A stretch of DNA of 64,000 bases from Bongovirus bongo (lineage: Duplodnaviria; Heunggongvirae; Uroviricota; Caudoviricetes; Vilmaviridae): the IMG/VR virus record IMGVR_UViG_2595698371_000001, one strand, 5' to 3'. The notes under the pieces were generated by a model. It was not told where the DNA came from, did no database searches, and saw nothing but the letters and a program-made list of their open reading frames with translations. Shown here piece by piece: positions 37,342 through 56,418 of the stretch; positions within the stretch are counted from its first letter, which is position 1; each line of letters starts with the position of its first letter. Both the position numbers and the translations under genes were made by a program.

Positions 37342-37410
37342 GGTTCTGAGGTGTAGGCCCTCGAAGAGGCCCCCGGTCAGCGTATGTGCTGGTCGGGGGC
37401 CTTTTTGGTT

Positions 37411-37428
37411 CTTCCTGTAATCACCTCC
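37411..37428 (+). promoter_or_regulatory. B-motif copy CTTCCTGTAATCACCTCC at the entrance of the tRNA array
   Basis: 140 bp upstream of the first tRNA. Confidence 0.45.
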
Positions 37429-37566
37429 GCGCGGCCTCTAATCTATTTCATGTCCGGTTCAAGAGGGACCGGATAAGCGATACACCGGAGGGGCCAAGTA
37501 CCCACACCTTTCAAGCCTGGTTCCTCCACTGGGGCTCAACAGAGTTGAGGCTGAAGAGTCCCACCT

Positions 37567-37637
37567 ATGGGCGTAGCTGACTGGGAAGCAACGGTCTCCA
37601 AAGCCGTGATATGCAGGTTCGAATCCTGCCGCCCGTG
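37567..37637 (+). tRNA. tRNA-Trp (anticodon CCA)
   Basis: acceptor ATGGGCG/CGCCCGT; anticodon stem ACGGT/GCCGT with loop CTCCAAA; T-arm GCAGG-TTCGAAT-CCTGC; 3-bp D stem. Confidence 0.55.
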
Positions 37638-37718
37638 CAAGGTTCGATGTTCGGTCATTACCGAACGCCGAGCATGTTGGTTGAGAACTCAATAGTGGAA
37701 GTACAAGTAAGTTTCAAT

Positions 37719-38121
37719 GGGGCTGTACTGGTTTCGATTGCGAACCGAGTCCATGGAAGCGTGCCGGGAAGATACGCCCGTAACAGTTCAACCCTTATAA
37801 GCGCCGCATTTGTTGACGCTGATTACGCCGTAGCTGCGTGATCCGGTGGGGCACAACGGTTCACCCGTTCCCGTGTGCAATCCCGCCGTCGCCAAAACGG
37901 GGAACCTGCATACCGACTCAGCATGCAGTGAGCCAGCAATGGTCATAATGCAGATGTCCTCCCGCCGTGAGGAGCGTAGATCGGCTTTGTACCCACACGG
38001 TGACCCTTCGAGGGTTAAGCCCTGTGAGCCAATGGGATACGAGATGAGTTACAGGCTACGCACGTAGAAGAATGAGTACAGAGAACGTAAGACGCGGGTT
38101 CGATTCCCGCCAGCTCCACCA
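37719..38121 (+). ncRNA. ssrA: tmRNA (ssrA), about 403 nt
   Basis: 5' GGGGCTG pairs with 3' CAGCTCC including the G3-U70 wobble; canonical 3' tRNA-like end GCGGGTTCGATTCCCGC-CAGCTCCACCA; internal tag-like frame ...ADYAVAA followed by TGA at about 37826-37850; no credible CDS across the interval. Confidence 0.8.
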
Positions 38122-38486
38122 AGGCCTTGGTCTGGGTTCGAATCCCAGTGTGATTGAAGTGGATTCACGGATGTGCACCCGTGTCTACGCTCCGGTGGGT
38201 AGCTCCCAGCCGCGTTCACATGGTGTAAATGGCAAGCACAGGGCCTGTAAACCGGTTTCCCATCTCCGACCAAAGGATGGGTGGTGGAAACGAACTGGGT
38301 CTTAGGCAACCCCGTTCAGTCCTCGGCGTCCCAGTCCGTCGTCACCCAGACTGGGTAAGCCTAAGTGCCTGCCACAGAGCTAACCCGTGAGGTCGGGAGA
38401 ATCTGGGCACGCTTGACAGCGGAGCGGGAGACTGCGAAAGGTGTCCGTCCTAGCCCTGGTATCGACGTTAAATATCCAGGGACTCT

Positions 38487-38557
38487 TGGCCTGTCGGTTA
38501 ACGGCAAACCAGCGCCCTGTTAAGGCGTGACTCCTGGTTCGAATCCAGGTAGGCCAG
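38487..38557 (+). tRNA. tRNA-Asn (anticodon GUU)
   Basis: U1-A72 acceptor TGGCCTG/TAGGCCA (as in E. coli tRNA-Asn); D stem GGTT/AACC; anticodon arm GCGCC-CTGTTAA-GGCGT; T-arm CCTGG-TTCGAAT-CCAGG. Confidence 0.6.
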
Positions 38558-39316
38558 CATTTGGGGCATGGCCCATAAGCTGAGGTGACTCAGTGAAAGG
38601 TGAGGGTGACTCCTCGCCGCCCGCAAGGGTCCCCATGCAATCCAAACCTTGAGCAGTCCCCTGTGGGGCTGCCAGGATGCGAGTTCATCGTGTGACCAAC
38701 GCCAAGTGGTGAGGTCGGGTTCGGTACCGTGCCGAAGAGCCAGCGAGTAACGGATGAGCAGCCTGTGGGGCGGAAGGAACTTGAGTCGGAGGCCTGGCAG
38801 CCAACGGCGGGTTCCATGACCGATCTCGCGTGGACGACGGTTCACAATGCGGTTGAGGGAGAGAGTGAGTAGCCCGCCAGGCAAAAGCTCGAGAGGCGTG
38901 AAGCATTCTGTAGCTCAAAAGGTTACGGAACTTCATGGGGAAGCACGTCTCTAGTCACAACTACCACGCTATTGGTTAGCAAACTGTCCTGAACACAGTT
39001 GTAGAGGTTCGACTCCTCACAAAGCAAAAGCCTTTCCCTGCCGGTAAGCGAAAGCGCCACTAATCCCCGACTGGGAGCAGAATCGGGGCAGGACGAGCCC
39101 GCAAGGCGGATCCTGTTTGTAGACGAGTAGTGCAGCCATGGGACGGCCATCCTAACGGCGAAGCCAAAGTCGCAGAGTAGCTTTCGGCATTACGAGTGGT
39201 CAGCGTTACTGACCGGGCGTTGCACGTACACAGGGGACTGTGTGGACAAGCCGGGAATCCATAATCCGGCGAAAGCGTGTGAAGGAAGGTTTAGTCTCTA
39301 GCCCTTTCAACAACGG

Positions 39317-39386
39317 GACATAGCTCAAATGGCAGAGTGGGGCAATTGGTGCCCTGGATTCAGGTTCGACTCCTGGTGGCCCGACG
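39317..39386 (+). other. tRNA-like element, either a pseudo-tRNA or an atypical tRNA-Gln(UUG); the anticodon region is 2 nt short or has A33
   Basis: good acceptor (CGGGACA/TGGCCCG), U8, D-arm GCTC-AAATGGCA-GAGT and T-arm TCAGG-TTCGACT-CCTGG, but the anticodon arm cannot be folded canonically. Confidence 0.3.
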
Positions 39387-39388
39387 TT

Positions 39389-39766
39389 ATGGCACTGGCA
39401 GGTGAAGCGAAGCGTGAGTACCAGCGACAGTGGCGAGCGAATCGCCGCGCGGCCTGGTTTGCCGGTAAGGCGTGTGTTCGGTGTGGATCTGATGAGGATC
39501 TAGAACTCGACCACGTAGACCCGACGTTGAAGGTGACGAATGCGGTCTGGTCATGGTCGCAGGAGCGCCGCGACGTGGAGCTTGCGAAGTGTCAAGTGCT
39601 CTGCAACGCTTGCCATAAGGCTAAGACCATATCCCAGACCGTCATCACTATCGGTCTGAAGGCGTACCGCCATGGCACGTGCAGCATGTACGAGCATCAC
39701 CGATGCAGGTGCGGACTGTGTAGGTTGTGGGCGCGAAACAAGAAGCGGCGTCAACGCGCCGCGTGA
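39389..39766 (+). CDS. HNH endonuclease, paralog 1 of the tRNA-array pair
   Basis: ATG immediately after the tRNA-like element; CVRCGS...LELDHVDPT...CNACH; about 60% identical to the 44049 gene over the N-terminus (REYQRQWRANRRAAWFAGKAC versus REYMRRWVANRRSAFFASKQC). Confidence 0.65.
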   Translation: MALAGEAKREYQRQWRANRRAAWFAGKACVRCGSDEDLELDHVDPTLKVTNAVWSWSQERRDVELAKCQVLCNACHKAKTISQTVITIGLKAYRHGTCSMYEHHRCRCGLCRLWARNKKRRQRAA

Positions 39767-39769
39767 TAT

Positions 39770-39851
39770 GCGGTCTCTCCCCTATTGGCGAAGGGCCCCT
39801 GGCTGTAACCCAGGGCTTTCGAGTGTGGTGGTTCGAATCCATCAGGCCGCA
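39770..39851 (+). tRNA. tRNA-Tyr (anticodon GUA), type II
   Basis: acceptor GCGGTCT/AGGCCGC; anticodon arm CCTGG-CTGTAAC-CCAGG; long variable arm; T-loop TTCGAAT; begins 3 nt after the HNH stop codon. Confidence 0.5.
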
Positions 39852-40020
39852 CGTTATGGACTGACGAGGCATTGCGCTCACGGGCTTGCGGCCGTGAGAT
39901 AGAGCCTTCGCCCGCAAGGCCAGTCCAATGGGTGGCGATTAGAGGGAGGGCCTCGTGCCCGAATCGAAAGTGCCCAGCGGCTAGTGGAGAGGTGAGCCGA
40001 CTGAATTGCCTTTCCATCAT

Positions 40021-40092
40021 TGCTCTCTCGTCTAACTGGCAGGACACCAGAATCTGACTCTGGCAGTTGAGGTTCGAATCCTTGGGGAGCAA
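40021..40092 (+). tRNA. tRNA-Gln (anticodon CUG)
   Basis: U1-A72 acceptor TGCTCTC/GGGAGCA; D stem GTC/GAC; anticodon arm CCAGA-ATCTGAC-TCTGG; T-arm TGAGG-TTCGAAT-CCTTG. Confidence 0.5.
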
Positions 40093-40096
40093 CAAT

Positions 40097-40169
40097 CTGG
40101 GTGAGGTGTAAGTGGTTGCATGGCCGGTTTGGATCCGGGCGGTTCGAGGTTCGAGTCCTCGCACCCAGA
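40097..40169 (+). tRNA. tRNA-Pro (anticodon UGG)
   Basis: acceptor CTGGGTG/CACCCAG; anticodon loop TTTGGAT; T-arm CGAGG-TTCGAGT-CCTCG; one mismatch in the anticodon stem. Confidence 0.45.
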
Positions 40170-40210
40170 CGACGAGTTTGCTGGTTTCCTTGGCTACAAA
40201 ACCAGCGTTC

Positions 40211-40293
40211 GGAGAGTTCCGCTGAATGGTCGGCAACCGGCGTCGAATACCGGGGCAGGGTGACACCTGGGGGTTCGAGTCCTCAACTCTCCG
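40211..40293 (+). tRNA. tRNA-Ser (anticodon CGA), type II
   Basis: acceptor GGAGAGT/ACTCTCC; loop GTCGAAT; long variable arm; T-loop TTCGAGT; 83 nt. Confidence 0.4.
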
Positions 40294-40462
40294 CAACGGC
40301 CGACCGGTAGGGGTCTCCCGGTCATTTAGTCAGGTCGCTGCCCAGGCGGGATGCATACCAATCGGGCGGAATTGGGGCCTCAGGACTTAGCGTGGCACCG
40401 TCGCGAAGAGAAAGCCCACTCTGCATGGTCGTCAGGTGGGATACGGCCCTTTACGGTGCGCT

Positions 40463-40548
40463 GGAGAGTGGAACCATCTAGGTGGATGGCCGCGATTGCT
40501 AATCGTGGGGCAGCGTAACGCTGTGTGGATCGTGCCCACTCCTCTCCG
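40463..40548 (+). tRNA. tRNA-Ser-like (anticodon GCU), type II with a non-canonical T-loop
   Basis: anticodon arm CGCGA-TTGCTAA-TCGTG; variable-arm hairpin CAGCG-TAA-CGCTG; acceptor GGAGAG...CTCTCC; the T-loop lacks the TTC. Confidence 0.3.
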
Positions 40549-40656
40549 CAATGAAGAACTAGCTGGCCAGCCATCAGGGTGCCGGTTCAATTCCGGCAGG
40601 GAAAACCTGTGTTCTTCAGGGGGTTTGGTTGGAGTCATGACCGCCACTCCCCACAA

Positions 40657-40731
40657 CGGGTTGTAGCTCAGATTGGTGAGAGCGCTCGGTTGAAACCCGA
40701 GAGGCCCCTGGTTCGAATCCAGGCATCCCGG
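40657..40731 (+). tRNA. tRNA-Phe (anticodon GAA)
   Basis: D-arm GCTC-AGATTGGTGA-GAGC; anticodon arm CTCGG-TTGAAAC-CCGAG; T-arm CCTGG-TTCGAAT-CCAGG; acceptor CGGGTTG/CATCCCG with one U-U mismatch. Confidence 0.55.
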
Positions 40732-40853
40732 CGCACAAGGGAAACCAGACTCGCCCGCTACTGGTGAAAAGCGGGACAGACGGCAGGGGAGGACAAGCCG
40801 CAGCGAAAACCTCCACAACTCTGACTCATGATGTTTGCTGATACAATGAACTT

Positions 40854-41303
40854 ATGAGAAAGCGCTGCCCCCGCTGCGGGGTTGAGAAGGATTGCTCCGA
40901 GTTCTATAAGAACGCGCGCCGGAAGGACGGCCTGCAGCCGTACTGCAAGCGTTGCCACAAGGACACAAACAACGAGTGGTACGCCAACTCGGAGAAGCGA
41001 CGTACTGACATCAAGCGTCGCCGCAAGGCCCATATTGAGATGTTGCAGGAGCACTTGCGGCAGCACCTGATTGACAACCCGTGCGTGGATTGCGGGGAGT
41101 CCGATCTCGTTGTCCTGGACCTGGACCACCGGGATGGCGAGAGTAAGGTCAAAGAGGTCGCAAAGCTGATCCGCGATCAGGTCAGCCTTGAGAAGTTTCA
41201 GGCCGAGATCGCAAAGTGCGACACCCGTTGCGCTAACTGCCATAGGCGCATGACGGCTCGCCGTCATGGCGCGTGGTGGAGGTCCAAAGACATTGCGGTG
41301 TAG
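40854..41303 (+). CDS. HNH endonuclease of a different family from the 39389 and 44049 pair
   Basis: CPRCG...C..C zinc knuckles; DLDHRDGE...CANCH; preceded by an extended -10 TGATACAAT. Confidence 0.6.
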   Translation: MRKRCPRCGVEKDCSEFYKNARRKDGLQPYCKRCHKDTNNEWYANSEKRRTDIKRRRKAHIEMLQEHLRQHLIDNPCVDCGESDLVVLDLDHRDGESKVKEVAKLIRDQVSLEKFQAEIAKCDTRCANCHRRMTARRHGAWWRSKDIAV

Positions 41304-41368
41304 AGCAGTTCGGAGTGCTCGCTTGGCTCATAACCAAGAGGCCGTCGGTTCAAATCCGACCACCGCAA
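41294..41368 (+). tRNA. tRNA-Met (anticodon CAU), elongator type; a lysidine tRNA-Ile2 cannot be excluded
   Basis: perfect cloverleaf: TGCGGTG/CACCGCA, TA, GAGC-AGTTCGGAGT-GCTC, CTTGG-CTCATAA-CCAAG, GTCGG-TTCAAAT-CCGAC; overlaps the HNH stop codon by 10 nt. Confidence 0.65.
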
Positions 41369-41450
41369 CGACGCACACAGGTTCTGCAAGGGGTAGGTAA
41401 AACGGGTCGACGCCCCAGTGGCCCAAACCTGGTGCATTGAAAGGAAATAC

Positions 41451-41612
41451 ATGGCTGAGAAGCTGAAGTCCGGTGTCGCCGCTGCTCCCATCGTGAAGGC
41501 GGTCAACGATCTGATCGAGCAGACCGGCGTGATCGACGTGACGGCGCTGGCCCAGACTGTCGCGGAACTCTCGGGCCGCGTCGAGGAGCTGGAAGGGGCA
41601 GCCGAGGAGTGA
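41451..41612 (+). CDS. small hypothetical protein (53 aa) inside the tRNA array
   Basis: ATG with GAAAGGAAA SD; coiled-coil-like. Confidence 0.4.
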   Translation: MAEKLKSGVAAAPIVKAVNDLIEQTGVIDVTALAQTVAELSGRVEELEGAAEE

Positions 41613-41648
41613 CCTTGCCGTCCTGGCCATGACGTGAAACTGGCCGAT

Positions 41649-41723
41649 CCCGCCGCAGCACGACGGACGTGCACCTCGCTACGAACGAGAAGGCTGCTGG
41701 TTCGAATCCAGTCGGTGGGTCCA
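41649..41723 (+). tRNA. tRNA-Arg (anticodon ACG) with encoded CCA
   Basis: acceptor CCCGCCG/CGGTGGG; D-arm GCAC-GACGGAC-GTGC; loop CTACGAA; T-arm GCTGG-TTCGAAT-CCAGT; 3' TCCA. Confidence 0.45.
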
Positions 41724-41725
41724 TA

Positions 41726-41797
41726 CCTCTTGTAGCTCAATGGTGAGAGCGCCGGTTTGTGAGACCGGTGACCTGCGTTCGATTCGCAGCAGGGGGA
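41726..41797 (+). tRNA. tRNA-His (anticodon GUG)
   Basis: D-arm GCTC-AATGGTGA-GAGC; anticodon arm CCGGT-TTGTGAG-ACCGG; T-arm CTGCG-TTCGATT-CGCAG; no encoded G-1/C73 pair. Confidence 0.5.
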
Positions 41798-41811
41798 CAG
41801 AAGGAGACGAC

Positions 41812-42069
41812 ATGGGCGTAATGCTCTCTCAGGCCGCTCTGGAGCGCGTTGAGGAGGCTTCGGCATGGTTGCGTCAGCGGCCCGAAGTTGAGGCACGAGA
41901 GAGGCAGCTAGCCGCCATTCTCGAGCACGAGATGCGACTGGCCGGATGGGATGGCACCGGAGATCTGCGGCCGTGGTTCACCCGGTGCATGGAGATCAAC
42001 ATTGCCTTGGATCAAGCTCAGGGTCGACCACCGTCGATTCAGGACTGGCCGGGGTATATGGCTCGCTAG
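41812..42069 (+). CDS. hypothetical protein (85 aa) inside the tRNA array
   Basis: GAAGGAGACGAC SD plus ATG. Confidence 0.45.
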   Translation: MGVMLSQAALERVEEASAWLRQRPEVEARERQLAAILEHEMRLAGWDGTGDLRPWFTRCMEINIALDQAQGRPPSIQDWPGYMAR

Positions 42070-42133
42070 GCAAACTGGCAAAGCCGCCTGATTCAGAATC
42101 AGGTGCTTCCGAGTTCGACTCTCGGGCGAGCTA
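42060..42133 (+). tRNA. tRNA with anticodon CAG (Leu-decoding) on a short-variable-arm (type I) scaffold with A73
   Basis: acceptor GGCTCGC/GCGAGCT; D GGC-n11-GCC; anticodon arm CCTGA-TTCAGAA-TCAGG; 4-5 nt variable arm; T-arm CCGAG-TTCGACT-CTCGG; overlaps the upstream CDS stop codon. Confidence 0.4.
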
Positions 42134-42134
42134 C

Positions 42135-43249
<1,115 letters not shown>

Positions 43250-43256
43250 TCCCATC

Positions 43257-43329
43257 GGGACGTTGGTGAAACGGCTATCACCGCACGCTCTTAACGTGTC
43301 AGTTCTGGGTTCGAATCCCAGGCGTCCCA
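43257..43329 (+). tRNA. tRNA-Lys (anticodon CUU)
   Basis: GGGACGT/GCGTCCC; GTGA-AACGGCTA-TCAC; GCACG-CTCTTAA-CGTGT; CTGGG-TTCGAAT-CCCAG. Confidence 0.6.
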
Positions 43330-43330
43330 C

Positions 43331-43402
43331 TTGGCTATGGTGAAGTAGTGATCACGTCGACCTGATAAGTCGGAGTTCTGGGGGCAGTACCCGGTAGCCA
43401 TA
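43331..43402 (+). tRNA. tRNA-Ile-like (anticodon GAU) with a non-canonical T-loop; possible pseudo-tRNA
   Basis: D GTGA-n8-TCAC; anticodon arm TCGAC-CTGATAA-GTCGG; the T-loop GGCAGTA lacks TTC. Confidence 0.3.
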
Positions 43403-43486
43403 CCAACTTGTGTCACCGCAGCAATGCGCCAGCGTTCCAACCTTGTCGGAGAGGCAGCTGAGCGAAGTCCGACGTGACACAATCCA

Positions 43487-43562
43487 ATGCGTGTGTGATG
43501 TTTAACGGCTAGCATTCCTGTCTTCCAAACAGGCTGTGCGGGTTCGAATCCCGCCACGCGTT
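43487..43562 (+). tRNA. tRNA-Gly (anticodon UCC)
   Basis: anticodon arm CCTGT-CTTCCAA-ACAGG; T-arm GCGGG-TTCGAAT-CCCGC; acceptor ATGCGTG/CACGCGT; atypical D-arm. Confidence 0.45.
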
Positions 43563-43563
43563 C

Positions 43564-43583
43564 CACCTGCGATTACAGGACAG
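43564..43583 (+). promoter_or_regulatory. composite AB motif CACCTGCGATTACAGGACAG inside the tRNA array
   Basis: directly after tRNA-Gly. Confidence 0.45.
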
Positions 43584-43617
43584 TGGGAAACTGTATGCCC
43601 AATGCCTTGTACCAAAG

Positions 43618-43688
43618 GCCCCGCTCGTCTAATGGGAAGGCCGCTGCGTTACAAGCAGCAGACGGGAGTTCGATTCTCTCGCGGGGTA
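43618..43688 (+). tRNA. tRNA-Val (anticodon UAC)
   Basis: GCCCCGC/GCGGGGT; anticodon arm GCTGC-GTTACAA-GCAGC; T-arm GGGAG-TTCGATT-CTCTC. Confidence 0.5.
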
Positions 43689-43750
43689 CGTCGACCTGAC
43701 GAGGTCACCGGGGACGGATCACCCGGCTTAGCGGCGAACGATCCTCCAAT

Positions 43751-43822
43751 GCCGGTATAGCTCAGTGGCTAGAGCACCTGTCTAGTAAACAGGAGACCAG
43801 GGTTCGATTCCCTGTTCCGGCT
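43751..43822 (+). tRNA. tRNA-Thr (anticodon AGU)
   Basis: GCTC-AGTGGCTA-GAGC; CCTGT-CTAGTAA-ACAGG; CAGGG-TTCGATT-CCCTG. Confidence 0.55.
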
Positions 43823-43826
43823 CTCT

Positions 43827-43899
43827 GGGGGTGCATGTTCCTTGGGGGCGACGGATCCTTGCAAGATCTGTGCGGTGGGTTCGATTCCCATCATCTCCA
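43827..43899 (+). tRNA. tRNA-Ala (anticodon UGC)
   Basis: G3-U70 wobble in the acceptor GGGGGTG/CATCTCC; anticodon arm GGATC-CTTGCAA-GATCT; T-arm GTGGG-TTCGATT-CCCAT; weak D-arm. Confidence 0.4.
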
Positions 43900-43937
43900 C
43901 AATCACAATAGGTCTCTCATCGGACCTATTGTGTCAA

Positions 43938-44010
43938 TCCCGATGTCATCTAGTGGACCAGGATGCCGCCCTGTCGAGGCGGTCACGCGAGTTCGAATCT
44001 CGTCGTCGGG
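43938..44010 (+). tRNA. tRNA-Asp (anticodon GUC)
   Basis: CCCGATG/CGTCGGG; D ATCT-n9-GGAT; anticodon arm CCGCC-CTGTCGA-GGCGG; T-arm GCGAG-TTCGAAT-CTCGT. Confidence 0.55.
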
Positions 44011-44048
44011 ACGTGGCATACAAGGATCCTTCCGTGCAGCGCGAGTAT

Positions 44049-44414
44049 ATGCGGAGGTGGGTGGCCAATCGCCGCTCAGCGTTTTTCGCAAGTAAGCAGT
44101 GCGCAATGTGCGGGGCAGGTGAGGAACTGGAGTTGGATCATATTGATCCAACGAAGAAGGTTGATCATCGCATCTGGAGCTGGACAGATGCGCGCCGGTC
44201 TGAGGAGTTGGCCAAGTGCCAAGTCCTGTGCGCCTCCTGTCACAAGAAGAAGACGGGAGAGCAGTGGTACGCGAACCGCTCCGTGTCTGAGAATGCCCAC
44301 CACGGCACTAGCCGTAGGTATCGGAAGATGAAGTGCCGTTGCGGGCTGTGCAGGCTCGGCAACACCAACCGCAGTCGCGCATTGCGTCAGCGGCACCGCG
44401 TTCCCGTGGAGTAA
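44049..44414 (+). CDS. HNH endonuclease, paralog 2 of the tRNA-array pair
   Basis: ATG 44049 (alternative GTG 44013) just after tRNA-Asp; CAMCGAGEELELDHIDPT...CASCH; the ORF-track ORF began inside the tRNA. Confidence 0.65.
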   Translation: MRRWVANRRSAFFASKQCAMCGAGEELELDHIDPTKKVDHRIWSWTDARRSEELAKCQVLCASCHKKKTGEQWYANRSVSENAHHGTSRRYRKMKCRCGLCRLGNTNRSRALRQRHRVPVE

Positions 44415-44473
44415 TTGGTTATCTCGCCTGACTCTCAATCAGGAGATTGCGCGTTCAAGTCGCGTCGGGAATA
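44400..44473 (+). tRNA. tRNA-Glu (anticodon CUC)
   Basis: acceptor GTTCCCG/CGGGAAT; anticodon arm CCTGA-CTCTCAA-TCAGG; T-arm GCGCG-TTCAAGT-CGCGT; overlaps the last five codons of the HNH gene. Confidence 0.5.
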
Positions 44474-44479
44474 CGTTGA

Positions 44480-44516
44480 CCCTCAACAGGTTTCGACCTG
44501 TTGGGGGTCTTTTTTA
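44480..44516 (+). terminator. rho-independent terminator closing the tRNA array
   Basis: GACCCTCAACAGGT-ttcg-ACCTGTTGGGGGTC followed by TTTTTT. Confidence 0.8.
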
Positions 44517-44530
44517 TGCGAAAACACCTT

Positions 44531-44551
44531 CTGACCTGCGATTACAGAACC
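44531..44551 (+). promoter_or_regulatory. composite AB motif CTGACCTGCGATTACAGAACC
   Basis: between the array terminator and rtcB. Confidence 0.5.
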
Positions 44552-44647
44552 GGGCCATACTTCTTGCCGTGAGTGTGATTGCCCTCCTGATCAGCCTCCT
44601 GCTGTTCGGCCTGGCGCTCCTAATCCTCTGTCACTGAAGGGATTCCA

Positions 44648-45886
44648 TTGACCCCGACTACTTTAGCTCCGAAGATTGTCAACTTCGCTTCGGAGATCGA
44701 CCAAGCGACGATTGACCAAGCCAAGCAGATCGCGGAGATGCCGTTCATCTACCCGCACCTGGCGCTGATGCCGGATGCCCACTCGGGCAAGGGATCTGCG
44801 GTCGGCACCGTCATCCCCACCAAGGGCGCTGTCATTCCGGCCGCTGTTGGGGTGGACATCGGCTGCGGCATGATTGCCGTCAAGACGCGGTTCCAGTGGG
44901 ACGCACTGCACACCGCGAAGGCTGGCGCTCCGGATCTGGCTGCGCTGCGCCGTCAGATTGAGGCGGCGATTCCGCTGTCTCCCGGCAACTACAACACGAC
45001 GCTGTCGAAGTTCAACTTCACACGCAAGAAGCACGAAGAGCTGATCCAGTTGCAGCAGGAGCTGGACGTGGACCTGTCTCACTCGCCGAAGTGGATGGAG
45101 CAGCTGGGATCTCTCGGCGGCGGCAACCACTTCATCGAGTTGTGTGTCGACGCCGAGGACAACGTGTGGCTGTTCCTGCACTCCGGTTCTCGCGGAGTCG
45201 GCAACAAGATCGCGCAGCGCCACATCAAGGCGGCTGTGGAGTACTGCGCAGAGGGTGCGCGGCTGGCTGGCTCCGATTCGGTTCGCGCCCGCTACCGACT
45301 CCCTCACCGAGATCTCGCGTTCCTGGACGAGGGAACGTGGATGTTCGACACGTACATCAAGGAGCTGGAGTGGGCCCAGCGGTTCGCGTACCTGAACCGT
45401 GCGGAGATGATGGACCGCTTCGTCCAGGTGTTCGCGTGGTGGATGGGCGTCGAGGCTCAGCGTGTCGAGGTGGAGCGCATCAACTGCCACCACAACTACA
45501 CGGTCCCCACCGTGATCGACGGGGAGCGAGTGTGGTTGACCCGCAAGGGGGCAATCGACGCGACCGAGGGCAAGCTGGGCGTGATCCCGGGCTCGATGGG
45601 CACCCGGTCGTACGTGGTGCGGGGGAAGGGCTGCAGCGCTTCTTTGCATTCTGCGCCCCATGGAGCCGGTCGCCGGTTCTCCCGCACGAAGGCCAAGGAA
45701 CTGTTCACCAGGGATGACCTGGCCGAGCAGATGCAGGGCATCGAGTGGCGCGAGGACATCGCCGAGAAGCTGGTCGATGAGATCCCGTCCTGCTACAAGG
45801 ACATCGACCAGGTCATGGCCGATGCCGAACCGCTGGTGGACGTGGTGACAACCCTGCGCCAGGTTCTCAACGTCAAGGGCACCTAG
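44648..45886 (+). CDS. rtcB: RtcB-family RNA ligase (3'-phosphate/5'-hydroxyl)
   Basis: 412 aa; metal-ligand motifs (HSGKGS..., GGGNHFIE, HSGSRG, NCHHN, HGAGR); TTG start with GAAGGGA SD. Confidence 0.85.
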   Translation: MTPTTLAPKIVNFASEIDQATIDQAKQIAEMPFIYPHLALMPDAHSGKGSAVGTVIPTKGAVIPAAVGVDIGCGMIAVKTRFQWDALHTAKAGAPDLAALRRQIEAAIPLSPGNYNTTLSKFNFTRKKHEELIQLQQELDVDLSHSPKWMEQLGSLGGGNHFIELCVDAEDNVWLFLHSGSRGVGNKIAQRHIKAAVEYCAEGARLAGSDSVRARYRLPHRDLAFLDEGTWMFDTYIKELEWAQRFAYLNRAEMMDRFVQVFAWWMGVEAQRVEVERINCHHNYTVPTVIDGERVWLTRKGAIDATEGKLGVIPGSMGTRSYVVRGKGCSASLHSAPHGAGRRFSRTKAKELFTRDDLAEQMQGIEWREDIAEKLVDEIPSCYKDIDQVMADAEPLVDVVTTLRQVLNVKGT

Positions 45887-45919
45887 CCCGAATCATCCAC
45901 TACTGCAAAGGAGTTGCCT

Positions 45920-46819
45920 ATGAGCTGGCAAATGTGGGCATTCATCGTCATCGGCATCATCGGTGTGCTGATCACGGCGGGCGGGTTTCTGGGTTCGCGT
46001 GTGGCGACCAAGCAGGCCGACAAGGACGGCATGAAGATGATCGGCGGCTTCGGCACGCTGGTCATCGCTCTCGGGGCCATCATTTTGGCCACCGGCTGCT
46101 TCACCATCGTCGGCACCCGGCAGGTGGGCATCGAGACGGCGTTCAACCGGCCGACCGGTAAGACGTTCGAGAACGGCCTGAACTTCAAGGCCCCGTGGGC
46201 CAGCGTGGTCGAAATGGACGGCGCGATCCAGATCAACAAGTACGAGGGCCCGAGCGCCATCCGTGTGCGTCTGGGGAACAACTCGACGGCCGGTGCTGAC
46301 ACGTCGATCCGGTGGCGTATCAAGCAGGATGCGGCTGATGAGCTGTTCGTTGACTACAAGACGTTCGACAACGTGCGGGTCAACTTGATCGAGCGCAATC
46401 TGCAGGTCGCGGAGAACGAGATTTTCCAGTCGTTCGATCCGCTGGACGCCGAGTGGGCCGAGGGTGTGCCGCTGCAGCAGTTCGCCGACAAGGCGGCGGC
46501 GAAGCTCAAGGATCTGGTCGGTCAGCAGGTGGAGATCATCGACGTGTCGGTGTCGCGCCTGGACTACGACGAGCAGACCGAGGGCAAGATCAACCAGCTG
46601 AACGCGGAGCGGGCCAACACCGCTGTGGCGAAGCAGGCCAAGGACACTGCCACTGCGCAGGCCGAGGCGAACCGTGAGCTGGCGTCGTCGGTGTCGAACG
46701 ATCCGAACGTCATCGTGGCGAACTGCATCACCAAGGCGCTGGACAAGGGCGTGTCCCCGTTCGGTTGCTGGCCGACTGGCGGCGAGATGCTGCTGACCGT
46801 CCCAGCACCCGTCAAGTAA
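45920..46819 (+). CDS. SPFH/band-7 (stomatin/prohibitin-like) membrane protein
   Basis: N-terminal TM helices then a band-7 core (TRQVGIETAF...KAPWASVVEMD...); AAGGAG SD. Confidence 0.55.
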   Translation: MSWQMWAFIVIGIIGVLITAGGFLGSRVATKQADKDGMKMIGGFGTLVIALGAIILATGCFTIVGTRQVGIETAFNRPTGKTFENGLNFKAPWASVVEMDGAIQINKYEGPSAIRVRLGNNSTAGADTSIRWRIKQDAADELFVDYKTFDNVRVNLIERNLQVAENEIFQSFDPLDAEWAEGVPLQQFADKAAAKLKDLVGQQVEIIDVSVSRLDYDEQTEGKINQLNAERANTAVAKQAKDTATAQAEANRELASSVSNDPNVIVANCITKALDKGVSPFGCWPTGGEMLLTVPAPVK

Positions 46820-46883
46820 CACCACCACTGCGCCGGTCCCTCAAAACTGTTGGGGGACCGGCGCTTTCCTCTGAAAGGCAACA

Positions 46884-47231
46884 ATGAGCACCTTCTCCTC
46901 TTACCAGACGGCCACCGGCACCACCGCGATCTACCCTGGCGCGGCCGATCCCGAGTCGATCATGGGATTGTCGTATGCAGCAATGGGTCTCGCGAACGAG
47001 GCGGGCGAGGTTCTGGGCAAGGTCAAGAAGATCATCCGCGACAACGACGGCGTGATCACCGCCGAGCATCGGGAGAACATCGCCAAGGAGCTGGGCGACA
47101 CGCTGTGGTACCTGGCGCAGGTGGCGACGCAGATCGATTACCCGCTGTCGCTGATCGCTCAGGAGAACCTGGACAAGCTGGCCGACCGGGCGGAGCGTGG
47201 CGTCCTGCAGGGATCGGGGGACAACCGATGA
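46884..47231 (+). CDS. mazG: MazG-like nucleotide pyrophosphohydrolase
   Basis: E..E....E..D motif (LANEAGEVLGKV...ELGDTLWYL). Confidence 0.7.
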   Translation: MSTFSSYQTATGTTAIYPGAADPESIMGLSYAAMGLANEAGEVLGKVKKIIRDNDGVITAEHRENIAKELGDTLWYLAQVATQIDYPLSLIAQENLDKLADRAERGVLQGSGDNR

Positions 47232-47494
47232 GCGTCAGGCAGAGCGCTGTCCTCGACCACACCGCGACCGGTGAGGGTTGGGATCTCATCCACTCGATCC
47301 GGCATCGCGGCGGCAGTGTCACGAGCATCTACACACACAAGTATCGGGGCGCGGCGCACGTCCGGACCCGCGACGGCCAGGTGATCGGCTTCTCCTGGCT
47401 CAATGAGCACAACGAGAACCCCGCCACGATCATGGCGTCGAGCGACATGTTTGAGTCGGCGCTGGAGGTTCTGATGGGGGAGCGCACCAGGTGA
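47228..47494 (+). CDS. hypothetical protein
   Basis: ATGA overlap; 88 aa. Confidence 0.4.
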   Translation: MSVRQSAVLDHTATGEGWDLIHSIRHRGGSVTSIYTHKYRGAAHVRTRDGQVIGFSWLNEHNENPATIMASSDMFESALEVLMGERTR

Positions 47495-47640
47495 CCCTCA
47501 CGGTGAAGCTGCTGGGCTTTGAGGTGGTGACGTTGGAGCTTGACATCACTGAGATGTCCTCCGACGCACCGCGTCTCACGCCCGTCGACAAGAGCGTCAA
47601 GGGTCTGTCCAATTGGTGGGTACGGAGGATGAACAAGTGA
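47491..47640 (+). CDS. small hypothetical protein (49 aa)
   Basis: GTGA overlap. Confidence 0.3.
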   Translation: MTLTVKLLGFEVVTLELDITEMSSDAPRLTPVDKSVKGLSNWWVRRMNK

Positions 47641-48041
47641 CCGTCACGAACGTCATTGCGCCCGAGTTGAATCCGCGTCGTCTGACGATCATGGGTGACC
47701 GCCAGTCAGGCAAGACGCACCACCTGTTGGACATCGCGGTAGACAACGCGGAGCGTGGTAAGGCTGTGTTGTTTGACTGCGCAACAGTTCCGCTGATGGC
47801 CAACACCTATGACCGCTGCGTCCGTGAGCATGCTCGGTTCGGATGGCCCGAGAGCACGGTCGTGAAGTGTCTCGACGGTCTGCGCGAGATCTACTTCGAG
47901 TCGGGCGGCAAGATCGTCTTCAACGCCGGTACTGCCTACGTGAAGCGGTACACCGGCCTGGTGGATGTCCATCTGATCGATGACACCGATGTCGATGCCC
48001 GTGCCGGTGCGGAGCTGGTCATCCGCGCCGTGAAGCGCTGA
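47637..48041 (+). CDS. P-loop NTPase
   Basis: Walker A GDRQSGKT; GTGA overlap start; the stop codon is embedded in the TGACCTGCG motif. Confidence 0.5.
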   Translation: MTVTNVIAPELNPRRLTIMGDRQSGKTHHLLDIAVDNAERGKAVLFDCATVPLMANTYDRCVREHARFGWPESTVVKCLDGLREIYFESGGKIVFNAGTAYVKRYTGLVDVHLIDDTDVDARAGAELVIRAVKR

Positions 48042-48058
48042 CCTGCGATTACAGAACG
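48037..48058 (+). promoter_or_regulatory. composite AB motif GCTGACCTGCGATTACAGAACG
   Basis: overlaps the stop codon of the 47637 gene; 17 bp upstream of the ATG at 48075. Confidence 0.5.
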
Positions 48059-48074
48059 ATGGGAAGCTTCCGCC

Positions 48075-48770
48075 ATGAGCTACTACTGGTTCAATAGCAA
48101 CCCCGTGGAGCTGGGGCCCTGCGTCGACCTGACCACTGATCAGCGCAAGCTGATTGAGGCGACGCCGAACCTGCGCCGCGCCTCGCTTGGCAACGCCATC
48201 CTGTATGGCGGGCCGCTGCTGCGGATCCTGTTGGCCCAGGCCCCGATCACCGGCACACACAAGAACGTGTTCGTGGACACGAAGGTGTCGATGCTGATGC
48301 CAGGCTGGTGGCCCGCGATCCCCGGCTGGCATACCGATGGGGTGCCCCGATACCGGGAGGTGGCCGGTGGCCGTGTGCTGGATCTGGCCGGGAAGCCCTC
48401 GCTGCCGATGCAGGTGACGAGTCATCATGATGGCTACCGGCCGATCTACCACACGATCCATGTCGGCAATGACTGCGCCACCGAGTTCCTCGACGGCCTG
48501 CTGCGGATGCCCATCGATCACGATGAGGACGAGCAGATGTACGCCGAGATGACCCGCAAGGTCAACGAGTGCTCGACCCTGAGGAAGCTGAGGGCCCAAG
48601 AGGGCCAGTGGCATTCGTGGGACTGGTGGAACATTCACCAGGCAACTCAGGCTACGGAGCGTGGGTGGCGGTTGCTGATCCGTGTCACCGAGTCCGATCA
48701 GGCTCCAGATCCTCACGATTTCGTTCGTCCTCAGAATCAGGTGTACGTGCCGAAGGAGTTCGGTTGGTGA
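48075..48770 (+). CDS. hypothetical protein
   Basis: 231-aa ORF; 17 bp downstream of the composite motif. Confidence 0.5.
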   Translation: MSYYWFNSNPVELGPCVDLTTDQRKLIEATPNLRRASLGNAILYGGPLLRILLAQAPITGTHKNVFVDTKVSMLMPGWWPAIPGWHTDGVPRYREVAGGRVLDLAGKPSLPMQVTSHHDGYRPIYHTIHVGNDCATEFLDGLLRMPIDHDEDEQMYAEMTRKVNECSTLRKLRAQEGQWHSWDWWNIHQATQATERGWRLLIRVTESDQAPDPHDFVRPQNQVYVPKEFGW

Positions 48771-49015
48771 CGATCACCGAGACGCAGTCCAGCGTTAATC
48801 CGCTCAAGGATCGCATCGACGCCGAATTTGGCGGTGCCACAACGTATGACACGGACGACCTGTACGGGCGGCATAGCATGCGGGTGTACGGGGAGTACGC
48901 GGCTGGCGAGCGGGAACTGGTGGTGTACGCCCCCGGCGAGGTTCCCAGCGTGGGGGCCCATAAGAGGGTTCGGTTTCAACGCATGAACAAGCACGGAAGT
49001 GAGGGCCTCTGGTGA
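48767..49015 (+). CDS. hypothetical protein
   Basis: GTGA overlap; 82 aa. Confidence 0.4.
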   Translation: MTITETQSSVNPLKDRIDAEFGGATTYDTDDLYGRHSMRVYGEYAAGERELVVYAPGEVPSVGAHKRVRFQRMNKHGSEGLW

Positions 49016-49242
49016 GCGGTTTACTGTTTCCGCTGGGGATCTTCATCGGCGCGCTATCCGGCAGCCTGTCAACGTCATTCCTCACAGCTCGCCGCAACCG
49101 GAACCGCGCCCCCCGGCATGAGCACGTGTGGGGTGAGTGGGAGGACTGTCGGATCACGCCCCACAATTCTCAGCCGGAATCGGGGCAGCGCCGCAGGTGC
49201 GTTACCTGCAACTACAAGGAAGTTCGGAAGGTGTTCTCTTGA
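49012..49242 (+). CDS. small membrane/Cys protein
   Basis: GTGA overlap; N-terminal TM helix; C..C pairs. Confidence 0.4.
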   Translation: MSGLLFPLGIFIGALSGSLSTSFLTARRNRNRAPRHEHVWGEWEDCRITPHNSQPESGQRRRCVTCNYKEVRKVFS

Positions 49243-49736
49243 GCCGTCGAGTGCTCATCACAGGCAGCCGCGACTGGGCTGACCGTCAAGCCGTGTGGCT
49301 GGCGCTGAATCACGAGATGGGCCACGAGGAGGCTCGCCATGATGGCCTGCTGGTCATCCATGGCGACTGCCCCACCGGTGCTGACCGGTTCGCTCACGAG
49401 TGGTACCTAATGCAGGCGTCGAAGTGGGTGCGGGAGAAGGCGATGCCCGCCGACTGGAACCGCGACTGCACCGGCCAGTGCCACCACAAGCCACGGTTCA
49501 AGAATGGCAAGCAGTATTGTCCAGTTGCAGGACACCTGCGGAACCAGGCGATGGTCGACTTCGGAGCTGACGTGTGTCTGGCGTTCCCCCTTGAGGATTC
49601 GCGCGGCACACAGGATTGCATGAAGCGGGCCAAGCGAGCCCAGATCCCCGTCCGCAACCTGGGATGGGGTGGGGAGCGTTGCCTGCCCAACATCGGTTAC
49701 CACAGCGAGCCTCACAGGGGGTGCATTCTCAGGTGA
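49239..49736 (+). CDS. SLOG/DUF2493-like Rossmann-fold protein (LOG/DprA-related nucleotide-binding domain), putative
   Basis: VLITGSRDW and HGDCPTGADR motifs characteristic of DUF2493/SLOG. Confidence 0.4.
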   Translation: MSRRVLITGSRDWADRQAVWLALNHEMGHEEARHDGLLVIHGDCPTGADRFAHEWYLMQASKWVREKAMPADWNRDCTGQCHHKPRFKNGKQYCPVAGHLRNQAMVDFGADVCLAFPLEDSRGTQDCMKRAKRAQIPVRNLGWGGERCLPNIGYHSEPHRGCILR

Positions 49737-49915
49737 GAGTCCGACTGGAAGTTGAGACCGACTCGGGCCGCATCATTGGCGCATCCGTCCCCGTTGCGTC
49801 ATTCCTGCCGAGCTACCGGGATCCCAGCGTCCATGAGCTGGAGATGCAGCGAAACATCCTGCGGGGGGCTATGAGGCAGATCCAGGCCGACATTGAAAGG
49901 GAGCTATACGGGTGA
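49733..49915 (+). CDS. small hypothetical protein
   Basis: GTGA overlap; 60 aa. Confidence 0.35.
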   Translation: MRVRLEVETDSGRIIGASVPVASFLPSYRDPSVHELEMQRNILRGAMRQIQADIERELYG

Positions 49916-50571
49916 GCACCGTGTTCTTCACGTCCGATCTGCACATCGGACACAAGAAGGTCATCGCCTCACGCACCTTGGTCGACGGCAAGCCCGCGTT
50001 CCCTGACCTGGACAATCTGCCAGAGTGGTTCGGGGACTACGAGATTGAGTCCTTCAACCGAATCCTCGCGGACAAGTGGGACACCACGGTCGGCAAGGAT
50101 GACGTGGTGTGGGTGCTGGGCGACATCTCATCCGGCACCAAAAGCGGCCAGGAGATGGCGCTGGAGTGGTTGTCGCGCCGCCCCGGCCGCAAGCGCCTCA
50201 TCAAGGGCAACCACGACGGTGTCCATCCTATGCATCGCGATAAGGGTAAGTGGGCCAAGGCGTATGGCGAAGTGTTCGAGGACATGGACACCGCCGCCCG
50301 CATCCGCGTCGCGCTGAGTGGGGGTGGGCATGTGGATGCCCTGCTGTCGCACTTCCCGTACATGGGGGATCACACGAGCGTGGACCGGCACACGCAGTGG
50401 CGTCTGCCGAACAACGGCACGATCCTGCTGCACGGGCACACGCACAGCAGTCGCAGGATGTCGAGTTGCGGTGGCTCCCTGCAGGTTCACGTCGGGGTGG
50501 ATGCATGGAACGGCTACCCGGTGTCGATGGATGAGATCCGTTCCTATGTTGAGATCTGGGAGGATGTATGA
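49912..50571 (+). CDS. calcineurin-like metallophosphoesterase
   Basis: motifs DLHIGH, GDISSG, GNHD, ...HGHTH (MPE motifs I-VI). Confidence 0.65.
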   Translation: MSTVFFTSDLHIGHKKVIASRTLVDGKPAFPDLDNLPEWFGDYEIESFNRILADKWDTTVGKDDVVWVLGDISSGTKSGQEMALEWLSRRPGRKRLIKGNHDGVHPMHRDKGKWAKAYGEVFEDMDTAARIRVALSGGGHVDALLSHFPYMGDHTSVDRHTQWRLPNNGTILLHGHTHSSRRMSSCGGSLQVHVGVDAWNGYPVSMDEIRSYVEIWEDV

Positions 50572-50801
50572 CCGAGTTCTTCACTGTGATTGCCGTGGTG
50601 AACGGCAGGGCCACATCGGACACTGACGCGTCCACGAACTCCCACCGGAGTGTTCGGTCCTACAAGACCGAGAAGATCGCTCAGAAGGCCATTCGGACGG
50701 CAGTACAGGAGCCTGGTGTGACGTACCGGATCCTGCACACCGTGATCGAGGACGGCTGGGAGCCGGTGTCGACCTGGACCGACTTCGTCTGGCGCGCGTG
50801 A
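50568..50801 (+). CDS. hypothetical protein
   Basis: ATGA overlap; 77 aa. Confidence 0.4.
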   Translation: MTEFFTVIAVVNGRATSDTDASTNSHRSVRSYKTEKIAQKAIRTAVQEPGVTYRILHTVIEDGWEPVSTWTDFVWRA

Positions 50802-51052
50802 CCGACCGTACGCGCCTGGAGCAGCGACTGGCGTGGGCCCTGCACGGCATCCGGCAGTCGTGGGGCTACGGGGACTCTGCGCGGCAGGTGCTTGACCAGC
50901 TGGCCGACGCGTTCCCCGGCGAGGTCGAAGCGGCGGCAAGGATCTCCCACCTCGAGGGTGAGCTGAGATCCATGGAGTTTCAACGAGATACAGCGAGGGC
51001 CCAACTGCGGGCCCACATCGCAAGAGCAGAGCGAAAGGCAGAGCGACAGTGA
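50798..51052 (+). CDS. hypothetical protein
   Basis: GTGA overlap; 84 aa. Confidence 0.4.
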   Translation: MTDRTRLEQRLAWALHGIRQSWGYGDSARQVLDQLADAFPGEVEAAARISHLEGELRSMEFQRDTARAQLRAHIARAERKAERQ

Positions 51053-51474: not shown

Positions 51475-51681
51475 ATGGCCAGTCTCGGTCTGACAGAAGA
51501 AGAGTGGGCTGCCATACGTCGCGAGAACGCTGACAGCCCACCCTTGACTGACGCTCAGGTCAACCGGATCTCAGTCATCGCTGGGCTTATGCCAGTAGAT
51601 GTCGATGTTGTGGCCAAGCGGCAGCTTGGCGGCAGCACGGCCGGTGATCTCGACATGCCGTATCACGATCTTGTCGCATAG
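51475..51681 (+). CDS. possible small protein; doubtful because it overlaps the integrase 3' end convergently
   Basis: 68-aa ORF; 110-nt antisense overlap with the integrase C-terminus. Confidence 0.25.
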   Translation: MASLGLTEEEWAAIRRENADSPPLTDAQVNRISVIAGLMPVDVDVVAKRQLGGSTAGDLDMPYHDLVA

Positions 51682-53041: not shown

Positions 53042-53076
53042 TTACTGCATTGATGCAGGTAGATAAAGGGCACCCA
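53033..53076. promoter_or_regulatory. candidate attP core or integrase operator: imperfect inverted repeat around a non-palindromic central TG
   Basis: GGGTGCCATCTTACTGCAT-TG-ATGCAGGTAGATAAAGGGCACCC; arms CTGCAT/ATGCAG are exact and GGGTGCC/GGGCACCC match at the outer ends; overlaps the int start codon. Confidence 0.35.
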
Positions 53077-54203: not shown

Positions 54204-54308
54204 AGGTTGATTCCCTTCTTGGAGGGCCGGAAGGCCACGTAGAAGATGTAGACCAGGTAGATGCCCAGGATGGCCAGCGCCAGGAACTGGCCGAGTGTGA
54301 GCTGCATG
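54204..54308 (-). CDS. tiny membrane protein (34 aa)
   Basis: ATG after GAGAAGGGAACAC; hydrophobic; below the ORF-track cutoff. Confidence 0.3.
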
Positions 54309-54344
54309 TGTTCCCTTCTCGTGTATGTGACGTGAATGTAGGCG

Positions 54345-56365: not shown

Positions 56366-56418
56366 CCCTCCTCCTCGGGGCGTACGTCGCACTTGGCGCA
56401 CTTCCGGTCGTATGCCAT

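Follow-up and report, generated by a model that had tools for sequence, protein, structure and literature searches.

The subject of this report is a tRNA island in a 64,000-nucleotide stretch of DNA from Bongovirus bongo. The whole of this stretch is referred to below as the window, and positions are those of the window unless another sequence is named. By megablast, window positions 37400-45900 matched positions 54355-62855 of Mycobacterium phage PegLeg (KC900379 / NC_021299) at 100% identity over the whole query. PegLeg is a temperate phage of cluster M1 with Mycobacterium smegmatis as host, and the window is the right-hand part of its genome (PegLeg positions 16956-80955; a window coordinate is the PegLeg coordinate minus 16955). 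The island consists of two consecutive units. The first, bounded by terminators (~37.41-44.51 kb), carries 21 tRNA genes, a transfer-messenger RNA (tmRNA), a GOLLD RNA, HNH genes and the gene for the beta subunit of ribonucleotide reductase. The next comprises a repeat motif (motif B), a short open reading frame (micro-ORF), the gene for the RNA ligase RtcB, a band-7 gene and its own terminator. These features all lie on the + strand. We regard the locus as the known translation-support island of cluster M phages, which probably replaces and repairs tRNAs attacked by the host.

tRNA and tmRNA genes

tRNA genes were called with ARAGORN and Rfam thresholds, GenBank annotation and comparison with the relatives Bricole and Reindeer. 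ARAGORN detected 18 tRNAs in 37567-44474, all on the + strand. Sixteen of them were also scored by Rfam: tRNA-Trp(cca) (37567-37638; 55.7 bits), tRNA-Asn(gtt) (38487-38558), tRNA-Gln(ttg) (39314-39385; 41.2 bits), tRNA-Gln(ctg) (40021-40093), tRNA-Pro(tgg) (40097-40170), tRNA-Phe(gaa) (40657-40732), tRNA-Met(cat) (41294-41369), tRNA-Arg(acg) (41649-41723), tRNA-His(gtg) (41726-41798), tRNA-Leu(cag) (42060-42134), tRNA-Lys(ctt) (43257-43330), tRNA-Gly(tcc) (43489-43565), tRNA-Val(tac) (43618-43689), tRNA-Thr(agt) (43751-43823), tRNA-Asp(gtc) (43939-44012) and tRNA-Glu(ctc) (44400-44474). tRNA-Tyr(gta) (39770-39852) scored only 23.3 bits with Rfam, and tRNA-Ser(gct) (40466-40547) was an ARAGORN call. 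Rfam added tRNA-Ile(gat), which has an atypical T-loop and no ARAGORN call; the match covers 43331-43402 (41.2 bits) of a gene that GenBank gives as 43331-43405. Nineteen tRNAs were therefore above thresholds.

Two additional, non-canonical genes lie below both the ARAGORN and the Rfam tRNA thresholds. tRNA-Ser(cga) (40210-40293) scored 30.6 bits (E 0.006) on the Rfam Sec model; tRNA-Ala(tgc) (43826-43898), which has the G3:U70 identity pair, scored 24.9 bits on the same model. Both fold toward cloverleaves. Since they are base for base the same as genes annotated as tRNAs in Bricole, and since the Reindeer orthologue of the Ala gene is called by ARAGORN and has compensating substitutions in three stems (acceptor, anticodon and T), we count both as real tRNAs. 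The total is then 21 tRNAs for 19 amino acids, with none for Cys. An earlier note on this DNA, made from the letters alone, had estimated about 20 tRNAs, and every isotype on its list was found; only the second tRNA-Gln (ttg and ctg) had escaped it. Two other candidates were discarded. The "second tRNA-Asn" of GenBank (gp93, 38559-38630) forms no cloverleaf, and an ARAGORN tRNA-Arg(ccg) of 96 nt at 15399-15494 is a false positive that lies inside a 323-codon ORF, forms no cloverleaf and has no Rfam support.

The tmRNA (37719-38121) noticed in the earlier note scored 98.4 bits with Rfam RF00023, for which the gathering score is 47. Its tag frame (37803-37841) encodes AAFVDADYAVAA followed by a stop, so that the tag ends in DYAVAA, and the 3' end (...CUCCACCA) belongs to a tRNA-like domain ending in CCA. 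The one-piece model fits better than the permuted model (98 versus 35 bits). ARAGORN made no tmRNA call on PegLeg, so the assignment rests on Rfam and on the orthologue in Rey, which ARAGORN does call (tag AAFVAADYAVGA).

Codon coverage was computed over 62 predicted genes (13,762 codons). With standard (strict) wobble rules the 19 solid tRNAs read 64% of phage codons; when U34 is allowed to read all four codons of a box (superwobble) and the two weak tRNAs are included, the value rises to 89%, and to 92% in the tail genes. The "translation autonomy" proposed in the earlier note is thus partial. The set is built from one U34 or A34 tRNA per four-codon box, G34 tRNAs for NNY codons and C34 tRNAs for the preferred GC-rich NNG codons, and it looks like a near-minimal decoding set tuned to the GC-rich codons of the phage, which uses AAG 566 times versus 25 for AAA, GAG 677 versus 135 for GAA and CTG 703 versus 94 for TTG. 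The A34 anticodon of tRNA-Thr(agt) is not in the host's set (host repertoire, PMC10264068 supplement); as Gly, Val, Ala and Pro have a single U34 tRNA each, this suggests that one tRNA serves each four-codon box. The codons preferred by the phage are also preferred by the host (host table in the same supplement), which argues against classical rare-codon compensation, just as the incomplete coverage argues against full independence.

Four protein genes inside the array had been overlooked in the earlier note. Three are annotated as HNH endonucleases, two of which, the homing endonucleases gp96 (39389-39766) and gp117 (44034-44414), match PF01844. The third, gp102 (40854-41303), carries this name in GenBank only; at E<0.01 it has no HNH match in Pfam, where its hits are weak and unrelated. 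The last 10 nt of the gene are shared with tRNA-Met. The fourth gene encodes the ribonucleotide reductase small (beta) subunit (42296-43249; PF00268, 322.8 bits).

GOLLD RNA inside the array

Between tRNA-Asn and tRNA-Gln(ttg), its direct neighbors, lies a GOLLD RNA of about 745 nt (38559-39304) that is annotated neither in the PegLeg record nor in the earlier note. It consists of a 5' domain (~38559-38890), a linker with a degenerate tRNA-like insert (38968-39018) and a 3' domain that extends to 39304. The 3' domain was recognized by RF02032 with 216.4 bits, compared with a gathering score of 150, over 38891-39304 and model positions 1-416, i.e., the full model; the scores in nine relatives were 182-206 bits.

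The 330 nt upstream of the Rfam match are kept alongside GOLLD in all cluster M phages as well as in prophages of M. abscessus, and identity in these genomes is 70-92% over the whole 755-nt query. An alignment of 10 sequences from cluster M and from M. abscessus prophages shows compensatory changes at 20 of the 55 base pairs of the 5' domain. In the same alignment 95.4% of cells are paired, compared with 84.8% after shuffling (none of 500 shuffles reached the observed value) and 32-44% when the partners were slid. The ORF annotated over this domain, gp94 (38729-38872, 47 codons), is interrupted by stops and frameshifts outside subcluster M1; it and the gp93 "tRNA-Asn" are very probably artefacts. 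The Rfam match to the 3' domain, the covariation in the 5' domain, the broken gp94 and the missing cloverleaf of gp93 together identify the feature at 38559-39304 as a ~745-nt GOLLD. The family phrog_37980 is built on the spurious ORF gp94.

The linker varies among relatives. In PegLeg its tRNA-like body has D, anticodon and T arms and no acceptor stem. It is likewise degenerate in Reindeer, MrMagoo and Aziz and is deleted in Nanosmite, whereas five relatives have a genuine tRNA (47-52 bits) at this place, namely M. abscessus prophages, Estes and Rey. PegLeg, MrMagoo, Aziz and Rey share an xGA (Ser-type) anticodon, and the position reads UGA or GGA in several genomes. According to the PMC10264068 supplement, UGA and GGA are anticodons that mycobacterial VapC cuts and that C1 phages avoid.

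Morgado et al. are said to have described GOLLD in Mycobacterium tRNA arrays in 2020. A structured RNA of ~430 nt occurs in 81% of mycobacterial tRNA arrays, including those of the cluster M type (PMC5966550), and GOLLD is expressed from a tRNA array in M. aubagnense (PMC6582537). GOLLD assembles into a 14-mer nanocage whose interior contains the linker (Kretsch et al. 2025, PMC12286853). The PegLeg RNA resembles known GOLLD in its full-length conserved 3' domain, its structured variable 5' domain, its variable linker able to hold a tRNA and its location in a phage tRNA island. It differs in that the linker tRNA is degenerate; a cage is a prediction for this member. A plasmid search for GOLLD yielded only the known CBMA213 plasmid, a partial match. 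We also considered that GOLLD might travel with RtcB in general and rejected the idea: in three unrelated RtcB phages, the 10 kb on either side of RtcB yielded neither GOLLD nor ROOL.

RtcB unit and downstream metallophosphoesterase

The array is framed by intrinsic terminators. One lies just upstream (37362-37407; a 20-bp GC-rich stem followed by a T-run); the one that closes the array (44478-44515) has a 14-bp stem at 44478-44509 followed by TTTTTT, in agreement with the strong exit terminator of the earlier note. A third, with a 15-bp stem (46830-46864), closes the unit of RtcB and band-7. Repeat motifs stand at the entrance of both units. Motif A (TTCCTGTAATCACCTCC, 37412-37428) heads the array; five copies of TTCCTGTAATCACCTCC-like sequence occur in the window, compared with 0.09 expected by chance, and each copy has a TAnnnT-like hexamer 9-15 nt downstream. 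Motif B (ACCTGCGATTACAG) heads the RtcB unit (44534-44547) and also occurs inside the array (43565-43578), with six exact copies versus 0.33 expected. The two motifs share only the 8-mer CTGTAATC, in inverted orientation. This 8-mer, present at 13 sites between 19762 and 59380 (0.67 expected), is the core of two longer families that have opposite orientations relative to the downstream genes, CCTGTAATCACC for motif A and CTGACCTGCGATTACAG for motif B. The earlier note was therefore correct in seeing a repeated motif at the array entrance, but the motif before RtcB is of a different family and not a copy of the same composite motif. Several CTGTAATC copies come after terminators, and we infer that A and B may be promoter- or operator-like elements. 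They are presumably among the published cluster M conserved repeats CR1-CR4 (PMC7953290). A sigma-70 promoter scan of 36.5-51.5 kb gave no hits.

The RtcB 3'-phosphate/5'-hydroxyl RNA ligase gp119 (44648-45886) starts 173 bp past tRNA-Glu. It matches PF01139 over the full length (357 bits; profile positions 1-426 to residues 24-411) and phrog_1075 with 526 bits, which bears out the ligase assignment made in the earlier note. In an alignment with the Pyrococcus horikoshii enzyme, D70, C73, N160, H161, H178, H282 and H338 correspond to D95, C98, N202, H203, H234, H329 and H404, residues that include the metal ligands and the GMP-accepting His. The metal-binding Asp, Cys and three His and the GMP-accepting His are thus all intact. 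The protein is below the cut-offs for the E. coli RtcB equivalog (PRK09588, 173 bits versus 407) and for PrfH-coupled RtcB (TIGR03073, 145.5 versus 271.8 bits); its best match is to an actinobacterial intein-type RtcB family.

Immediately before RtcB is an unannotated hydrophobic micro-ORF of 22 codons (44569-44637; VSVIALLISLLLFGLALLILCH) that is conserved in Reindeer and Rey, with a length of 22-25 aa (segment L014, 7366-7434; segment L013 of Rey, 7390-7467). Its stop abuts the RtcB Shine-Dalgarno sequence in PegLeg. In Rey, where it is annotated as gp133, the stop overlaps the RtcB ATG. Over the three phages, 11 of its 20 Leu codons are CTC, compared with ~21% genome-wide, and CTC cannot be read by tRNA-Leu(cag). 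The order terminator, motif B, micro-ORF, RtcB is conserved, and the micro-ORF is apparently translationally coupled to RtcB. The unit also includes a band-7/SPFH membrane protein (45920-46819; PF01145, phrog_200). In Rey, a gene for a PTP/dual-specificity phosphatase directly follows RtcB (segment L013, 8679-9185); its PegLeg counterpart, gp82 (DSPc, PF00782; 34920-35426), lies instead 2 kb upstream of the array. Judged by position, this phosphatase would rank level with the metallophosphoesterase as a candidate partner of RtcB.

The latter, gp129 (49912-50571, + strand), belongs to the L5/D29 gp66 family and is 52-56% identical over the full length to these proteins (52% to D29 gp66). As the earlier note had it, a calcineurin-like metallophosphoesterase does lie 4 kb on: gp129 matches PF00149 with 41 bits, its five motifs (DxH, GD, GNH[D/E], H and GHxH) are all present and invariant in 32 homologues, and its AlphaFold2 model (pLDDT 96) has the calcineurin-like family fold. 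The same five motifs occur in D29/L5 gp66, which is not a factor for RNA repair. On the - strand, 1 kb from gp129, is the gene for a large serine integrase with Resolvase, Recombinase and Zn-ribbon domains (51571-53073). gp129 was considered as a Bxb1 gp47-type excision factor (RDF) for this integrase and rejected (BLASTP E = 1.0); the gp129/gp66 family differs from both the Bxb1 gp47 RDF and A10ZJ24 gp48 (E = 1.0).

The earlier note further proposed that gp129 heals RNA ends for RtcB, the two forming a heal-and-seal pair like that of Pnkp. Some observations favor this. D29 gp66 has reportedly the activity of a 2',3'-cyclic nucleotide phosphodiesterase (Dutta 2014, as cited in PMC12287305), so that chemistry of the gp66 type could touch RNA ends. 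The gene block of gp129 is headed by motif B, like the RtcB unit. In Gordonia phage Norvs, whose RtcB is 57.6% identical to that of PegLeg, a gp129 homologue annotated as "MRE11" (39% identity, E 9e-37) is encoded two genes upstream of RtcB (segment L015, 8240-11215). The chemistry of gp66 and the Norvs adjacency leave the idea a small chance. On the opposing side, RtcB joins a 3'-phosphate or 2',3'-cyclic phosphate directly to a 5'-hydroxyl (PMC7824862), so it needs no healing enzyme, and a phosphoesterase that removed these ends would destroy its substrate and antagonize it. gp129 is 4.0 kb beyond RtcB, with the terminator at 46830-46864 and nine genes between, and is thus in a separate transcription unit, where its neighbors, MazG and a DprA/SLOG-like protein, have DNA and nucleotide functions. 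In structure it is no nearer Pnkp than is any other family member, and no kinase, adenylyltransferase-type or ATP-dependent ligase or Hen1 was annotated or detected within 18 kb. The gp66 family is represented in 221 phage records, including L5, D29, 31 Arthrobacter phages and 30 Streptomyces phages. The ten genera best represented in the RtcB search, down to one with 17 records, include neither of the latter two, and many gp66 records come from genera with few or no RtcB phages, i.e., the family is common in phages without RtcB. A healing role for gp129 is accordingly very doubtful, and the protein most likely has a separate function outside the RtcB module.

Proposed function of the island

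M1 and M2 phages share the gene order Trp, tmRNA, Asn, GOLLD ... Asp, Glu, RtcB, and RtcB is tightly conserved next to the array across cluster M. A similar arrangement is the "host translation takeover" region of Sphingobium phage Lacusarx (PMC5648845), in which 24 tRNAs, an HNH gene, a tmRNA and rtcB lie within ~10 kb. Both phage and host are unrelated to PegLeg and its host, and the region also has tadA and a sigma factor, with no GOLLD at the Rfam gathering score. Since a dense island with an intact RtcB is conserved in M1 and M2 and recurs in the unrelated Lacusarx, replacement and repair of tRNAs is a reasonable reading, plausible but old.

Several other systems share parts of this arrangement. 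RtcB of cluster K1 is 60-64% identical to that of PegLeg and has led to an equal counter-defense speculation (Pope et al. 2011, PMC3203893); a single tRNA is present in K1 phages, compared with 21 in PegLeg, and neither tmRNA nor GOLLD was reported for them. The cyanobacterial L-array (PMC8421152) is likewise a long, horizontally transferred tRNA array with an HNH gene and rtcB-linked regulation, and it is induced when translation is impaired. It is, however, chromosomal, its link with rtcB consists of shared promoter repeats rather than adjacency, and it serves stress survival and not phage growth. The proposed logic, re-sealing by a phage enzyme of tRNA cut by the host, is that of phage T4, whose Pnk and Rnl1 act on PrrC-cut tRNA-Lys. 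In T4, however, Pnk heals the ends and a 3'-hydroxyl and 5'-phosphate are sealed with ATP, whereas RtcB seals a 3'-phosphate or cyclic phosphate to a 5'-hydroxyl with GTP and Mn. No Pnk and no Rnl/ATP-dependent RNA ligase is annotated in PegLeg 52-70 kb, the remaining genome not having been covered by the profile searches.

The island and the idea of replacement and repair are already known. The PegLeg GenBank record has the tRNAs, the tmRNA, HNH endonucleases and ribonucleotide reductase as well as gp119 (as "RtcB-like RNA ligase") and gp129 (as "metallophosphoesterase"), at the same coordinates as the earlier note. According to papers that cite it (PMC5966550, PMC7953290), Pope et al. 2014 (J Virol 88:2461) has the cluster M tRNA array as its topic. 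The same locus is the "G1" array of Morgado and Vicente 2018 (PMC5966550), PegLeg having been among the three phages on which cluster M was founded, and it differs from the published array not in substance but only by corrections to the deposited annotation. Speculation that phage RtcB and phage tRNAs guard against a host defense based on tRNA cleavage appeared in the 2011 cluster K paper (PMC3203893). A review on jumbo phages describes tRNAs "supplemented" by RtcB ligases (PMC7824862), and in mycobacteriophage cluster C1, tRNAs with nuclease-evading anticodon loops have been argued to counter VapC-type mycobacterial nucleases (PMC10264068). Thus, with the array published in 2014, the counter-cleavage idea printed in 2011 and the same combination present in Lacusarx, the pairing of array and RtcB in one phage region is not new, contrary to what the earlier note had supposed. 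What that note found is real and was read correctly in outline; its claim of novelty is wrong, and its use of the phosphoesterase is probably wrong. The value of the present analysis is confirmation rather than discovery. Fresh here are the micro-ORF before RtcB, unannotated in the record, and corrections to the annotation, i.e., the extent of GOLLD, the missing tRNA-Ser(cga) and tRNA-Ala(tgc), the false tRNA gp93 and the spurious ORF gp94. These corrections would keep deletion designs from being misdirected.

In the mechanism that we favor, the island would sustain phage translation during lytic growth when the host tRNA pool is depleted or cut. Phage tRNAs could replace the species targeted by the many VapC- and MazF-type tRNA nucleases of mycobacteria, and RtcB would re-seal RNAs with 2',3'-cyclic phosphate and 5'-hydroxyl ends in one step, without a healing enzyme. 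The tmRNA would release ribosomes stalled on broken mRNA or at codons without tRNA, and the HNH genes may explain the mobility and variability of the array. We consider replacement and repair of host-attacked tRNAs probable, with some reserve, and several points weigh against it. We know of no anticodon nuclease that acts on PegLeg. Even under the most permissive decoding, Cys codons, ACG, CTC, CGG, TCC and GAA are uncovered, there is no tRNA for Cys, and PegLeg continues to need tRNAs of the host. In two phages with close homologues of its RtcB, Norvs of Gordonia and Trogglehumper of Rhodococcus, the ligase gene is far from any tRNA gene (in Norvs, none within 10 kb on either side). It is therefore false that RtcB is always beside tRNAs, and the linkage is lineage-specific. 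Finally, RtcB enzymes are reported to repair rRNA as well (PMC9304027).

The main rival is codon supply alone, in which the tRNAs would fit phage codon usage or widen the host range in late synthesis, RtcB would be a repair or housekeeping passenger and host tRNA nucleases would play no part. The abstract of the 2014 cluster M study reportedly mentions the tmRNA and an RtcB-like ligase and proposes late lytic use of the tRNAs; the view attributed to it, that tRNAs offset inadequate or degraded host tRNAs in late growth, counts for this rival. So do the match of anticodons to the preferred AAG, GAG and CTG codons, the peak of coverage in the tail genes and the horizontal spread of the array as a unit found also in mycobacterial chromosomes and plasmids (PMC5966550). 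The codons served are, however, also host-preferred, so rare-codon compensation does not account for them, and the tmRNA and RtcB that accompany the array in M1, M2 and Lacusarx suggest a response to damage or stalling rather than a gain in speed. We hold supply alone to be unlikely, though deserving of serious attention. Less probable still is that the substrate of RtcB is not tRNA but rRNA (the 16S 3' end cut by ribotoxins), mRNA or tmRNA, its adjacency to the array reflecting shared regulation only. Bacterial RtcB paired with PrfH is reported to repair damaged ribosomes (PMC9304027), and RtcB homologues occur in phages without nearby tRNAs; gp119 itself is below both the E. coli and the PrfH-coupled cut-offs and closest to the intein-type family. 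On the other hand, in cluster K only the tRNA-bearing subcluster has RtcB (PMC3203893), and in cluster M its place beside the array is tightly conserved.

We give the least credence to the proposal that RtcB matures phage RNAs, by splicing or joining pieces of tRNA, tmRNA or GOLLD, instead of repairing them. RtcB is the tRNA-splicing ligase of archaea and animals (PMC8421152), and the island has unusual RNAs, among them the non-canonical tRNAs and the GOLLD with its tRNA-like body. ARAGORN and Rfam revealed no tRNA that is split or has an intron, however, all being colinear and 72-84 nt long, and the tmRNA fits the one-piece model. Moreover, the products of RNase P and RNase Z carry 5'-phosphate and 3'-hydroxyl ends, which RtcB cannot join. 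The whole island might also be one integrated counter-defense machine. In this view the GOLLD cage, whose interior linker carries the tRNA-like body with its xGA anticodon, would lure or soak up tRNA nucleases or would shelter tRNAs, RtcB would re-seal the rest and the CTC-rich micro-ORF would tune the ligase to the host tRNA pool. We offer this as a highly speculative suggestion that is in all likelihood too ambitious; if GOLLD did take part in counter-defense, its function could be approached genetically with PegLeg on M. smegmatis. Since RtcB, GOLLD and tmRNA lie together in ~8 kb of a phage whose host, M. smegmatis, has established methods of phage recombineering, PegLeg is a practical place to test all three.

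Outside the island, a further repeat, TCCCTTCTCCGTGTGTG, was observed on the + strand between leftward (- strand) genes at 54300-61350. Its reverse complement contains GGAGAAGGGA, and the genes of the rightmost block probably have it in common as a leader element with a ribosome-binding site.

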